Shown in pieces: positions 15,267 through 20,190 of a stretch of 64,000 bases of DNA; position 1 is the first letter of the stretch, and each line of letters starts with the position of its first letter. The notes beneath the pieces were generated by a model, which was given only the letters and a program-made list of their open reading frames with translations, had not been told where the DNA came from and did not search any database. The stretch comes from Escherichia coli (GTDB lineage: Bacteria > Pseudomonadota > Gammaproteobacteria > Enterobacterales > Enterobacteriaceae). The stretch lies in the NCBI RefSeq assembly GCF_009931435.1, contig NZ_CP043414.1; one strand, written 5' to 3'. Made by a program: the position numbers and the translations under genes.

Positions 15267-16334
15267 ATGGATAAGAGTAAGCGCCATCTGGCGTGGTGGG
15301 TTGTCGGGTTACTGGCGGTGGCTGCCGTCGTGGCGTGGTGGCTGTTGCGCCCGGCAGGTGTGCCGGAAGGCTTTGCCGTCAGCAATGGGCGCATTGAAGC
15401 GACGGAAGTGGATATCGCCAGCAAAATTGCCGGGCGTATCGATACCATTCTGGTGAAAGAAGGCCAGTTTGTTCGCGAAGGCGAAGTGCTGGCGAAGATG
15501 GATACTCGCGTGTTGCAGGAACAGCGACTGGAAGCCATCGCGCAAATCAAAGAGGCACAAAGTGCCGTTGCCGCCGCGCAGGCTTTGCTGGAGCAACGGC
15601 AAAGTGAAACTCGTGCCGCGCAGTCACTGGTTAATCAACGCCAGGCCGAACTGGACTCTGTAGCGAAACGTCATACGCGTTCCCGCTCGCTCGCCCAACG
15701 TGGGGCTATTTCTGCGCAACAGCTGGACGACGACCGCGCCGCCGCTGAAAGCGCCCGTGCTGCGCTGGAATCGGCAAAAGCCCAGGTTTCGGCTTCTAAA
15801 GCGGCTATAGAAGCGGCACGTACCAATATCATTCAGGCGCAAACGCGCGTCGAAGCGGCACAAGCCACTGAGCGGCGCATTGCCGCAGATATCGATGACA
15901 GTGAACTGAAAGCCCCGCGTGACGGACGCGTGCAGTATCGGGTTGCCGAGCCTGGCGAAGTGCTGGCAGCAGGCGGTCGGGTGCTAAATATGGTCGATCT
16001 CAGCGATGTCTATATGACCTTCTTCCTGCCAACCGAACAGGCGGGCACGCTGAAACTGGGCGGTGAAGCACGGCTGATCCTCGATGCCGCGCCAGATCTG
16101 CGTATTCCGGCGACCATCAGTTTTGTCGCCAGCGTCGCCCAGTTCACGCCAAAAACCGTCGAAACCAGCGATGAGCGGCTGAAACTGATGTTCCGCGTCA
16201 AAGCGCGTATCCCACCGGAATTACTCCAGCAACATCTGGAATATGTCAAAACCGGTTTGCCGGGCGTGGCGTGGGTGCGGGTGAACGAAGAACTTCCGTG
16301 GCCTGACGACCTTGCGGTGAGGTTGCCGCAATGA
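15267..16334 (+). CDS. yhiI: HlyD-family membrane-fusion (periplasmic adaptor) protein
   Basis: ORF track 15231..16334; ATG at 15267 gives [27 protein letters not shown]..., 355 aa, with a coiled-coil-rich middle; stop overlaps the rbbA start (ATGA). Confidence 0.88.
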
Positions 16335-19066
16335 CGCATCTGGAACTGGTTCCCGTCCCGCCTGTCGCGCAACTGGCGGGCGTGAGCCAGCATTATGGAA
16401 AAACTGTTGCGCTGAACAATATCACTCTCGACATTCCGGCCCGCTGTATGGTCGGGCTGATTGGCCCGGACGGCGTCGGGAAGTCGAGTTTGTTGTCACT
16501 GATTTCCGGTGCCCGCGTCATTGAGCAGGGCAACGTGATCGTGCTGGGCGGCGATATGCGCGACCCGAGGCATCGCCGTGACGTCTGCCCGCGCATTGCC
16601 TGGATGCCGCAGGGACTGGGCAAAAACCTCTACCACACCTTGTCGGTGTATGAAAACGTCGATTTTTTCGCCCGCCTGTTCGGTCACGACAAAGCGGAGC
16701 GGGAAGTCCGAATTAATGAGCTGCTGACCAGCACCGGGTTAGCACCGTTTCGCGATCGTCCGGCAGGTAAACTCTCCGGCGGGATGAAGCAAAAACTGGG
16801 GCTGTGCTGTGCGTTAATCCACGACCCGGAATTGTTGATTCTTGATGAGCCAACAACGGGGGTTGACCCGCTCTCTCGCGCCCAGTTCTGGGATCTGATC
16901 GACAGTATTCGCCAGCGGCAGAGCAATATGAGCGTGCTGGTTGCCACCGCCTATATGGAAGAGGCGGAACGCTTCGACTGGCTGGTAGCGATGAATGCCG
17001 GAGAAGTACTGGCGACTGGCAGCGCCGAAGAGCTGCGGCAGCAAACGCAAAGCGCCACGCTGGAAGAAGCATTTATAAATCTGTTACCGCAAGCACAACG
17101 GCAGGCGCATCAGGCGGTAGTGATCCCACCGTATCAACCTGAAAACGCAGAGATTGCCATCGAAGCGCGCGATCTGACCATGCGTTTTGGTTCCTTCGTT
17201 GCCGTTGATCACGTCAATTTCCGCATTCCACGCGGGGAGATTTTTGGCTTCCTTGGTTCGAACGGCTGCGGTAAATCCACCACCATGAAAATGCTTACTG
17301 GACTGTTACCCGCCAGCGAAGGTGAGGCGTGGCTGTTCGGGCAACCGGTTGATCCAAAAGATATCGATACTCGCCGTCGGGTAGGCTATATGTCGCAGGC
17401 GTTTTCGCTCTATAACGAACTCACCGTGCGGCAAAACCTTGAGTTACATGCCCGTTTATTTCACATCCCGGAAGCGGAAATTCCCGCAAGAGTGGCTGAA
17501 ATGAGCGAGCGTTTTAAGCTCAACGACGTTGAAGATGTTCTGCCGGAGTCATTGCCGCTCGGCATTCGCCAGCGGCTTTCGCTGGCGGTGGCGGTGATTC
17601 ATCGCCCGGAGATGTTAATCCTCGATGAGCCTACTTCTGGCGTCGATCCAGTGGCGAGGGATATGTTCTGGCAGTTAATGGTCGATCTTTCGCGCCAGGA
17701 CAAAGTGACCATTTTCATCTCCACCCACTTTATGAACGAAGCGGAACGCTGCGACCGCATCTCACTAATGCACGCCGGAAAAGTGCTTGCCAGCGGTACA
17801 CCGCAGGAACTGGTTGAGAAACGCGGAGCCGCCAGTCTGGAAGAGGCATTTATCGCCTATTTGCAGGAAGCGGCAGGGCAGAGCAACGAAGCCGAAGCGC
17901 CGCCTGTGGTACATGACACCACCCACGCGCCGCGTCAGGGATTTAGCCTGCGACGTCTGTTTAGCTACAGCCGTCGCGAAGCACTGGAACTGCGCCGCGA
18001 TCCGGTACGTTCGACGCTGGCGCTGATGGGAACGGTGATCCTGATGCTGATAATGGGTTATGGCATCAGTATGGATGTGGAAAATCTGCGCTTTGCGGTG
18101 CTCGACCGCGACCAGACCGTCAGTAGCCAGGCGTGGACGCTCAATCTCTCCGGTTCCCGTTACTTTATCGAGCAGCCGCCGCTCACCAGTTATGACGAGC
18201 TTGATCGTCGGATGCGTGCGGGCGATATCACGGTGGCGATTGAGATTCCACCCAATTTCGGGCGCGATATCGCGCGTGGTACGCCTGTGGAACTCGGTGT
18301 CTGGATCGACGGTGCGATGCCCAGTCGTGCCGAAACGGTAAAAGGTTACGTGCAGGCCATGCACCAGAGCTGGCTACAGGATGTGGCGAGTCGGCAATCC
18401 ACGCCCGCGAGCCAAAGCGGGCTGATGAATATTGAGACACGCTATCGCTATAACCCGGACGTAAAAAGCCTGCCAGCGATTGTTCCGGCGGTGATCCCGC
18501 TTCTGCTGATGATGATTCCGTCAATGCTAAGCGCCCTTAGCGTGGTGCGGGAAAAAGAGTTGGGGTCGATTATCAACCTTTACGTGACTCCCACCACCCG
18601 TAGCGAATTTTTGCTTGGCAAACAGCTACCGTACATCGCGCTGGGGATGCTGAACTTTTTCCTGCTCTGCGGTCTGTCGGTGTTTGTGTTTGGCGTGCCG
18701 CATAAAGGCAGTTTCCTGACGCTCACTCTGGCGGCGTTGCTGTATATCATCATCGCCACCGGAATGGGGCTGCTGATCTCCACCTTTATGAAAAGCCAGA
18801 TTGCCGCCATTTTCGGTACGGCGATTATCACGTTGATCCCGGCGACGCAGTTTTCCGGGATGATCGATCCGGTAGCTTCGCTGGAAGGTCCAGGACGTTG
18901 GATCGGCGAGGTTTACCCTACCAGTCATTTTCTGACTATCGCCCGCGGGACGTTCTCGAAGGCGCTGGATCTGACGGATTTATGGCAACTTTTTATCCCG
19001 TTGCTGATAGCCATTCCACTGGTGATGGGCTTAAGCATCCTGCTGCTGAAAAAACAGGAGGGATGA
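16331..19066 (+). CDS. rbbA: Ribosome-associated ATPase RbbA (two ABC ATPase domains fused to a C-terminal ABC-2 permease domain)
   Basis: 911-aa ORF; two Walker A motifs ([18 protein letters not shown]) and two LSGG signature motifs; hydrophobic C-terminal domain. Confidence 0.93.
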
Positions 19067-20190
19067 TGCGCCATTTACGCAATATTTTTAATCTGGGTAT
19101 CAAAGAGTTGCGCAGTCTGCTTGGTGATAAAGCGATGCTGACGCTGATTATTTTCTCGTTTACGGTGTCGGTGTATTCGTCAGCGACCGTCACGCCAGGA
19201 TCGTTGAATCTGGCACCGATCGCTATTGCCGATATGGATCAATCGCAGTTATCGAACCGGATCGTTAACAGCTTCTACCGCCCGTGGTTTTTGCCCCCGG
19301 AGATGATCACCGCCGATGAGATGGATGCTGGGCTGGACGCCGGGCGCTATACCTTCGCGATAAATATTCCGCCTAATTTTCAGCGTGATGTCCTCGCAGG
19401 ACGCCAGCCGGATATTCAGGTGAACGTCGATGCCACGCGCATGAGCCAGGCATTCACTAGCAACGGTTATATCCAGAATATTATCAACGGTGAAGTGAAC
19501 AGCTTTGTCGCGCGCTACCGTGATAACAGCGAACCGTTGGTATCGCTGGAAACCCGCATGCGCTTTAATCCGAACCTCGATCCCGCGTGGTTTGGCGGGG
19601 TGATGGCGATCATCAACAACATTACCATGCTGGCGATTGTGTTGACCGGATCGGCGCTGATCCGCGAGCGTGAACACGGCACGGTGGAACACTTACTGGT
19701 GATGCCGATAACGCCGTTTGAGATCATGATGGCGAAGGTCTGGTCGATGGGGCTGGTGGTGCTGGTGGTGTCGGGATTATCGCTGGTGCTGATGGTGAAA
19801 GGTGTACTGGGCGTACCGATTGAAGGCTCGATCCCGTTGTTTATGCTGGGCGTGGCGCTCAGTCTGTTTGCCACCACGTCAATCGGCATTTTTATGGGGA
19901 CGATAGCGCGTTCAATGCCGCAACTGGGGCTGCTGGTGATTCTGGTGCTGCTGCCGTTGCAAATGCTTTCCGGTGGCTCCACGCCGCGCGAAAGTATGCC
20001 GCAGATGGTGCAGGACATTATGCTGACCATGCCGACGACACACTTTGTCAGCCTCGCGCAGGCCATCCTCTACCGGGGTGCCGGATTCGAAATCGTCTGG
20101 CCGCAGTTCCTGACGTTGATGGCAATTGGCGGCGCGTTTTTCACCATCGCGCTGCTGCGATTCAGGAAGACGATTGGGACAATGGCGTAA
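19066..20190 (+). CDS. yhhJ: ABC-2 family transporter permease
   Basis: ORF track 18898..20190; start at the ATGATG overlapping the rbbA stop ([30 protein letters not shown]...), about 374 aa. Confidence 0.88.
   Translation: MRHLRNIFNLGIKELRSLLGDKAMLTLIIFSFTVSVYSSATVTPGSLNLAPIAIADMDQSQLSNRIVNSFYRPWFLPPEMITADEMDAGLDAGRYTFAINIPPNFQRDVLAGRQPDIQVNVDATRMSQAFTSNGYIQNIINGEVNSFVARYRDNSEPLVSLETRMRFNPNLDPAWFGGVMAIINNITMLAIVLTGSALIREREHGTVEHLLVMPITPFEIMMAKVWSMGLVVLVVSGLSLVLMVKGVLGVPIEGSIPLFMLGVALSLFATTSIGIFMGTIARSMPQLGLLVILVLLPLQMLSGGSTPRESMPQMVQDIMLTMPTTHFVSLAQAILYRGAGFEIVWPQFLTLMAIGGAFFTIALLRFRKTIGTMA

Follow-up and report, generated by a model that had tools for sequence, protein, structure and literature searches.

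The closest described relative of the system treated here is YbhGFSR of Escherichia coli K-12 (cecR-ybhGFSR), a putative three-part pump built around an ATP-binding cassette (ABC) transporter of the ABC-2 type. The yhiI-rbbA-yhhJ operon, found in a 64,000-nucleotide stretch of E. coli DNA (contig NZ_CP043414.1; the whole stretch is hereafter called the window), has the same parts in the same order, with an HlyD-type adaptor, a tandem ATPase and two ABC-2 permeases, and the two sets are paralogous at 25-41% identity. YhiI and YbhG share 30% of their residues, the ATPase domains of RbbA and YbhF 40-41% in their best segments, the membrane half of RbbA and YbhS 32%, and YhhJ and YbhR 25%. On these correspondences, yhiI-rbbA-yhhJ is a paralogue of ybhGFSR, its rbbA gene amounting to a fusion of ybhF and ybhS. 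The ybhGFSR genes also overlap and also lack a channel gene in the operon. The two systems differ in the linker between the ATPase domains, which is short in RbbA and ~85 residues long in YbhF, and in their control region, where ybhGFSR has the adjacent TetR regulator gene cecR and yhiI-rbbA-yhhJ has a small open reading frame (ORF), yhiY, in its leader instead.

Drug phenotypes have been reported for YbhFSR (PMC7190983), and none for YhiI-RbbA-YhhJ in the literature found. A major review files YbhFSR under the MacB family, yet its permeases are paralogues of the ABC-2-type membrane domains of RbbA and YhhJ and are not of the FtsX type. In an older ABC classification, the combination of an adaptor, a tandem-ABC protein with or without a fused permease, and a permease formed the "DRI/YHIH" subfamily, of unknown function (PMC2821768). 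The operon studied here is thus already known and annotated, and is not a discovery: RefSeq names YhiI an HlyD family secretion protein, RbbA a ribosome-associated ATPase/putative transporter and YhhJ an ABC transporter permease, and a published table lists the three genes as one operon (PMC9962212).

Two pumps that use TolC offer further comparisons. MacAB-TolC follows the same logic, with an ABC transporter, a membrane-anchored adaptor carrying a hairpin and an R-L-S tip, and an outer channel; MacB, however, is a type VII (FtsX-fold) homodimer with four transmembrane (TM) helices and one ATPase domain per chain, whereas RbbA and YhhJ are of type V, with six TM helices. In EmrAB-TolC, the adaptor EmrA resembles YhiI in its N-terminal TM anchor and its long hairpin, and an obvious membrane-proximal domain is missing from both, but EmrB is a major facilitator superfamily protein driven by the proton-motive force and not by ATP. 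The lipid exporters ABCA1, ABCA3, ABCA4, ABCA7 and Tribolium ABCH-9C have in common with RbbA the type V fold and an extracytoplasmic domain after TM1, although these eukaryotic proteins function with neither adaptor nor outer-membrane channel. By analogy, this resemblance suggests a lipid-like cargo. We know of no structure of a type V ABC transporter bound to both an adaptor and an outer-membrane channel.

It is probable, in our assessment, that yhiY-yhiI-rbbA-yhhJ encodes the inner-membrane and periplasmic parts of an ATP-driven three-part export pump of type V (ABC-2), and that this pump is a core, strongly constrained paralogue of ybhGFSR with no detectable tie to the variable islands beside it. 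The evidence comes from the architecture of the three proteins, their conservation, their gene junctions and the outer-membrane channel gene that accompanies them in other bacteria.

The RbbA-YhhJ transporter and its adaptor

RbbA matched the NCBIfam equivalog NF033858 with 1596.6 bits over model positions 1-908 of 909 (curated cutoff, 1050 bits). Five Pfam families were matched by RbbA in all, and the matches comprise two ABC_tran domains and ABC2_membrane_3. The membrane families PF12698 and PF01061 cover residues 569-903 of RbbA and 25-364 of YhhJ, which gives both proteins an ABC-2 membrane domain, and YhhJ aligns with RbbA residues 524-911 at 28% identity (E 9e-28). Other export folds were not found: the type IV exporter fold of HlyB-type type I secretion (PF00664), which usually comes with a C39 or C39-like domain, had no match in Pfam, where only ABC-2 membrane families were matched, and neither the MacB-type FtsX domain (PF02687) nor MacB_PCD (PF12704) was among the Pfam matches, the model having six TM helices and not four.

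The AlphaFold2 model of RbbA (mean predicted local distance difference test score, pLDDT, 84; predicted TM-score 0.72) places a first nucleotide-binding domain (NBD1) at residues ~13-258, a short linker at ~259-274, NBD2 at ~275-515 and a disordered linker at 517-532. The membrane part follows with TM1 at 558-578, a mixed alpha/beta periplasmic domain at ~586-706, and TM2 to TM6 among helices 714-904. As modelled, this order, with the ATPase domains before a six-helix membrane domain and an extracytoplasmic domain between TM1 and TM2, corresponds to the type V layout. The best fold match was the ceramide-binding half-transporter ABCH-9C; next came Dpp/Opp importers with their fused tandem NBDs, and ABCA3, ABCA4 and ABCA7 ranked lower. 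By sequence, the best matches in the PDB were ABCA3, ABCA4, ABCA1 and ABCA7 (E 1e-60 to 1e-70), and the PDB copy searched held no structure of RbbA, YbhF or a close homologue.

In ABC proteins, each ATP site combines one domain's Walker and H-loop motifs with the signature motif of the other domain. Among 77 RbbA orthologues, the NBD1 H-loop carries Tyr (Y208) instead of His in all 77, and the NBD2 signature reads LPLGxRQR instead of LSGGQ, again in all 77, while the NBD2 H-loop His and the NBD1 signature LSGGMKQK are invariant. RbbA thus has one degenerate and one canonical ATP site. Judged from these motifs, the degenerate site is the one formed by the NBD1 Walker motifs and the NBD2 signature, and the canonical site probably performs catalysis and drives turnover, as in other asymmetric ABC exporters. 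The asymmetry suggests that NBD1 and NBD2 of one RbbA chain pair with each other, which would fit one RbbA and one YhhJ per transporter; the gene content, with two ATPase domains and two membrane domains, fits the same composition. YbhF shares the design, with Tyr in its NBD1 H-loop and the signature LPLGFKQR in NBD2 (ybhGFSR of E. coli K-12, positions 4003-8973 of that sequence), so the asymmetry predates the split of the two pumps.

YhiI has the domains of a periplasmic adaptor. Its Pfam matches (HlyD_3, HlyD_D23, Biotin_lipoyl_2 and CusB_dom_1) include the lipoyl and beta-barrel domains, and its AlphaFold2 model (mean pLDDT 87) shows an N-terminal TM helix at residues 3-26, predicted to anchor the protein in the inner membrane, a lipoyl domain, a hairpin and a beta-barrel. 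The two hairpin helices (81-144 and 150-211) are ~63 residues each, or roughly 95 Å. Among solved structures, the best matches were EmrA in EmrAB-TolC (Foldseek E 6e-21) and MacA in MacAB-TolC. At the hairpin tip of MacA and AcrA, an R-x3-L-x6-S motif contacts TolC. The corresponding residues of YhiI are R138, L142 and S149 (R138-x3-L142-x6-S149); R138 and L142 are present in 38 of 38 orthologues and S149 in 31 of 38.

Conservation, gene junctions and the outer-membrane channel

The distribution of the operon was assessed by a scan of species-representative genomes for full-length RbbA, which gave at least 80 loci, together with a representative search; a word-indexed RbbA protein search was set aside as uninformative on distribution, being swamped by near-identical E. 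coli sequences. In E. coli the operon belongs to the core genome: 5413 of 5426 complete genomes carry it at ≥80% coverage. The loci from other species, at least 80 in number, come from several proteobacterial classes, Verrucomicrobia and Planctomycetes and have the same three genes in the same order. Among the matches listed, Escherichia, Citrobacter, Pseudocitrobacter and Kluyvera have RbbA proteins of 85-99% identity, Providencia and Proteus of ~75-77%, and alpha-, beta-, gamma- and deltaproteobacteria, Verrucomicrobia and Phycisphaerales of 66-72%, and every locus with enough flanking sequence has an adaptor gene upstream and a second permease gene downstream on the same strand. Salmonella and Klebsiella are not among these matches, which is not interpretable as absence.

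All parts of the system are constrained. Compared with a typical E. coli allele, each of the three genes in the window has a dN/dS within 0.012-0.025 (dS ~0.15). Across 69 distant RbbA orthologues, identity is 68-71% in the membrane helices, 62% in the periplasmic domain and 71-77% in the ATPase domains, and the linker at 517-532 is the poorly conserved part (21% identity, pLDDT <50).

The three genes are intact and co-directional in the ORF list and the raw sequence. The rbbA ATG (16331-16333) overlaps the yhiI TGA (16332-16334) as ATGA. At the next junction, ATGATG occupies 19063-19068, the rbbA stop TGA 19064-19066, and the yhhJ frame contains both ATGs. The second ATG (19066, a 1-nt overlap) is favoured as the yhhJ start because it is the start in the RefSeq annotation of matching genomes, because its distance from the AGGAGG ribosome-binding site (19056-19061) is 4 nt, the first ATG being only 1 nt away from that site, and because Citrobacter has GTGATG at this junction.

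A lone ATGA overlap is the commonest type of bacterial gene overlap and is unremarkable by itself. Among the matches listed, however, the adaptor gene and rbbA overlap by 4 nt (ATGA or GTGA) in 67 of 75 orthologous loci, and the rbbA/yhhJ gap is between -4 and +3 nt in 60 of 69. Tight junctions retained across such distant species indicate that the coupling is a conserved property, beyond chance, and not a local accident.

No stop codon interrupts the yhhJ frame in the 168 nt before the rbbA stop (18898-19066), so any -1 or +2 frameshift there fuses RbbA to YhhJ. Ten RbbA-YhhJ "fusions" of 1272-1286 aa in public assemblies have frameshifts at scattered positions of the junction, in A6 and G3 runs, and some would need two homopolymer deletions. 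They are probably sequencing errors, and for this reason were not used to support a 1:1 stoichiometry.

Clustering of flanking ORFs identified one recurrent neighbour, a gene of ~500 codons that, in 22 of 76 non-Escherichia loci, directly precedes the adaptor gene in the same orientation; in 11 of these 22 it overlaps the adaptor start (among the matches listed). An example matched Pfam OEP, and 22 of 22 matched the NodT-family outer-membrane efflux model TIGR01845. This putative in-operon channel supports a three-part pump and is the strongest evidence available for one. The second-largest neighbour cluster, a ~184-aa upstream ORF on the opposite strand, had no Pfam match, overlaps the channel gene and was taken to be a spurious antisense ORF in GC-rich genomes. 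The operon in this window contains no outer-membrane channel gene. In E. coli the channel would be borrowed from elsewhere, probably TolC, with the NodT-type proteins MdtP, MdtQ and CusC as alternatives.

A preliminary description of this DNA had read the locus as three tightly coupled genes with the architecture of an envelope exporter. That reading is borne out on each point: both overlaps are present in the sequence as described, with the second ATG now favoured for yhhJ; gene order and close junctions are kept across at least 80 loci; the domain content agrees, with an HlyD-type adaptor, two ABC_tran domains and ABC2_membrane_3 in RbbA, and ABC2_membrane_3 in YhhJ; and the conserved order, the tight junctions and the upstream NodT channel gene of other taxa fit an exporter.

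In the proposed assembly, one RbbA chain would supply both ATPase domains and one six-helix membrane domain with its periplasmic domain, and one YhhJ would supply the second, paralogous membrane domain, giving a pseudo-heterodimeric transporter. YhiI, held by its N-terminal helix, would bridge to the outer-membrane channel with its hairpin and R-L-S tip, the channel being the in-operon NodT-family protein in many other bacteria and a protein encoded elsewhere, probably TolC, in E. coli. The stop/start overlaps may couple translation and so yield subunits in fixed ratios. As for the cargo, the channel of the NodT type and the likeness of the domains to ABCA, ABCH and DrrA favour a small or amphipathic molecule, possibly an endogenous lipid-like compound, over a protein.

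Several points weigh against this assembly. Neither a transport substrate, nor assembly of the pump, nor TolC dependence is reported for YhiI-RbbA-YhhJ in the literature found. The channel gene is absent from the E. coli operon and from 54 of the 76 non-Escherichia loci (among the matches listed), so in those hosts the function could be confined to the inner membrane. The 1:1 stoichiometry of RbbA and YhhJ and the roles of the two ATP sites are ones that we infer. Finally, truncated RbbA modestly stimulates or inhibits translation in vitro (PMC12096078), and its ATPase domains may therefore have some ribosome-related activity.

The cargo and control of the pump could be more specific than this. 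Rather than a drug pump, YhiI-RbbA-YhhJ might have a housekeeping role in exporting an endogenous component of the envelope, lipid-like or amphipathic, as a bacterial counterpart of the ABCA/ABCH proteins coupled to an adaptor and a channel, with expression set by Rho-dependent attenuation in the yhiY leader. We hold this fuller version to be possible but doubtful. If true, it would explain the 60-75% identity of all parts, the periplasmic domain included, across bacterial phyla. Handles on both cargo and control are provided by the channel gene in the operons of other taxa, the ATP site that is invariantly degenerate, the tip motif of the adaptor and the conserved yhiY leader.

RbbA as a transporter or a ribosome factor

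The name of RbbA reflects a different proposal, namely that it is mainly a ribosome-bound translation factor that releases E-site tRNA, its transporter-like context being incidental or secondary. Truncated RbbA changed the yield of difficult peptides 0.6- to 2.1-fold in vitro and competed with ABC-F proteins, and the same study cites earlier biochemistry in support of a ribosome role (PMC12096078). The ABC-F factors (EttA, Uup, YbiT and YheS) have tandem ATPase domains in common with RbbA, EttA is among its fold matches, and truncated RbbA behaves somewhat like these factors in vitro. However, a long linker between the domains, in contact with the P-site tRNA, and the lack of a membrane domain characterise the ABC-F family; RbbA has neither property. 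The ABC-F linker family PF12848 is not among the five Pfam families matched, the linker between NBD1 and NBD2 is only ~16 residues against ~60-100 in the ABC-F group, and RbbA is not a soluble protein free of membrane domains. Its ATPase domains classify with the DrrA, NodI and ABCA exporters and not with ABC-F, and superposition on EttA is poor (TM-score 0.33-0.59, versus 0.65-0.79 for the tandem NBDs of Dpp/Opp importers). Additionally, conservation of the fused membrane and periplasmic domains falls little short of that of the ATPase domains, and the adaptor and permease partners are always present at the listed loci with enough flank.

The in vitro work used only an RbbA fragment without the membrane domain, and E-site binding is claimed only for the truncated protein (PMC12096078). 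Full-length RbbA-mCherry was spread through the membrane (PMC6788730), which counts against a ribosome factor. The whole yhiN-rhsB segment was deleted in the viable reduced strain DGF-298 (PMC10652928), so rbbA is dispensable, and a paraquat-evolved strain has lost the segment as well. Concerns about images led in 2025 to the retraction of the main in vivo paper that connected RbbA with translation and with YhjD. The ribosome-factor name thus rests on in vitro work with truncated protein and on a retracted in vivo paper, while all sequence evidence points to a membrane pump, and we regard a primary ribosome role as very unlikely. The tension between the exporter architecture and the "ribosome-associated" annotation, which the preliminary description had pointed out, is real, given the missing ABC-F linker and the fused, conserved membrane domain. 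By its sequence, RbbA appears to have been selected as a membrane transporter and bears no sign of being built as a ribosome factor.

A combination of the two roles is unlikely, though less so than a mainly ribosomal protein. In it, the pump would be the main function, and ribosomes would also be contacted by the ATPase domains or by a piece set free at the disordered linker (517-532), which might, for example, tie the expression or activity of the pump to translation. Such a combination accommodates the disordered and poorly conserved linker between NBD2 and the membrane domain, the in vitro activity of the truncated fragment (PMC12096078) and a translated leader ORF with Rho-dependent premature termination, which makes operon expression translation-sensitive (PMC7815308). 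There is no evidence for a soluble RbbA fragment in vivo, however, and the in vitro effects of truncated RbbA are small and vary in direction (PMC12096078). Many ABC ATPases probably also bind nucleic-acid-rich particles non-specifically.

Flanking islands, leader and other features

The coordinates of the operon and of the features around it are collected in Table 1.

Table 1. Positions in the window of the operon, its leader and the flanking islands
Feature	Position	Strand	Remarks
Two tandem DUF4049 (YhiJ/YhiL) genes	11410-14901		Low GC; the first also with DUF6860
Promoter-like site, TAGACA-16 nt-TACTAT	14906-14933	+	Putative; sole sigma-70-like match in 14700-20600
Conserved leader block	15056-15117	+	Holds the yhiY ribosome-binding site and first codons
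yhiY, small ORF	15091-15195	+	RefSeq-annotated at the corresponding position
Leader hairpin, CCGCUGAA-CGUCG-UUCGGCGG	15198-15218	+	Predicted, consensus fold; starts 3 nt after the yhiY stop
yhiI	15267-16334	+	355 aa; membrane-anchored HlyD/EmrA-type periplasmic adaptor
rbbA (older name yhiH)	16331-19066	+	911 aa; NBD1, NBD2 and ABC-2 permease with periplasmic domain
yhhJ	19066-20190	+	374 aa; second ABC-2 permease, paralogue of the RbbA membrane domain
RHS core gene	24149-28348	-	1399 codons; part of the Rhs element at 20344-28348
Rhs tail after the core gene	within 20344-28348	-	ybfC-like, NTF2-fold immunity, DUF6258 and YbbC/YhhH-like ORFs

The operon lies, as the preliminary description had it, between the YhiJ/YhiL genes on one side and the Rhs element on the other. 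That description had further taken this position as a hint that the pump might export something encoded nearby, and had proposed a co-occurrence analysis with the islands. An export or service role for an island product, whether the Rhs toxin or the YhiJ/YhiL proteins, is favoured only by physical adjacency in E. coli, and the comparison with other genomes speaks consistently against it. The operon is near-universal in the 5426 E. coli genomes (5413), whereas the DUF4049 pair is found in 4160 (77%), mostly at 80-95% nucleotide identity, and the Rhs tail of this window is complete in only 272 (5%), its content varying among strains with the same operon. Outside Escherichia, among the matches listed, no locus has DUF4049 beside the operon, and no neighbour other than the outer-membrane channel recurs in more than 10 of 76 loci. 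Candidate regulator or cargo genes by the operon are scattered only (TetR in 4 of 65 loci, GHL10 in 4 of 65, PHA synthase in 7 loci and PTA/MaoC in 7 loci, again among the matches listed).

The composition of the islands and the operon differs as well, GC being 0.32-0.38 in the former and 0.52-0.59 in the latter. The second DUF4049 gene, compared with that of a typical strain, has a dN/dS of ~0.2 (dS 0.28), in sharp contrast with the neighbouring core genes and with the far lower dN/dS of the operon itself. Furthermore, the transporter is neither a protein-secretion ABC transporter of the HlyB type nor of the MacB type by its Pfam matches, and the operon-encoded channels of other taxa are of small-molecule NodT types. 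The islands are variable and the operon core, and we consider export of a neighbouring product exceedingly improbable.

The leader of the operon, which together with yhiY was not part of the preliminary description, holds a conserved block that is almost invariant in nucleotides across Escherichia, E. albertii, Citrobacter, Pseudocitrobacter and Kluyvera (counted as five enterobacterial genera). YhiY has 34 codons in the window, ending three codons earlier than the 37 of typical E. coli. Both ends of the protein are kept in Citrobacter and Pseudocitrobacter (N-terminal MMTTLLP, C-terminal LIP(D/E)G), and Kluyvera has only MMTT followed by a stop. The small protein has been validated and is a candidate upstream ORF (uORF), with an RNA 3' end less than 200 nt downstream; Rho-dependent premature termination was reported in the yhiI 5' region, and yhiY-yhiI is among the uORFs with a nearby RNA 3' end (PMC7815308).

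In Citrobacter and Pseudocitrobacter, wobble changes and one double change preserve the predicted leader hairpin. However, the leader fold is no more stable than shuffled sequence (z = -1.26), and only 5 of 53 predicted pairs are changed on both sides, and for these reasons the leader structure is reported as a lead only. Rfam gave no match for the leader, and a permissive scan of 14700-20500 was empty. Altogether, a uORF/Rho attenuator in the yhiI leader is a reasonable lead and not a result. GCGUGUU (15062-15068) may also pair over a long range with AACACGU (15226-15232).

A homologous TAGACA...TA(G/C)TAT pair adjoins the leader in E. albertii, Citrobacter and Pseudocitrobacter. In E. coli, ~120 nt (14934-15055) that are absent from these three separate the promoter-like site from the leader block.

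Downstream of yhhJ, no intrinsic terminator was found, and the terminator-like matches inside genes do not exceed the expectation from shuffled sequence. The segment 20196-20345, after the yhhJ stop, contains an inverted repeat, GATGCGTA...TACGCAT, that resembles a degenerate repetitive extragenic palindromic (REP) element; a short stretch at ~20290-20345 matches sequence that lies under an insertion sequence annotation elsewhere in an E. coli genome. The closest strain carries an ISEc1 transposase gene (yhhI) between yhhJ and the Rhs tail, and the window does not have it. Over 15000-20400, the operon DNA shares only 96.4% identity with most of the 5426 E. coli genomes and 98.8% with strain 2020CK-00188, yet the proteins are 99-100% identical. 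This divergence indicates either that a divergent E. coli lineage is the source of the window or that the window includes a recombined segment.

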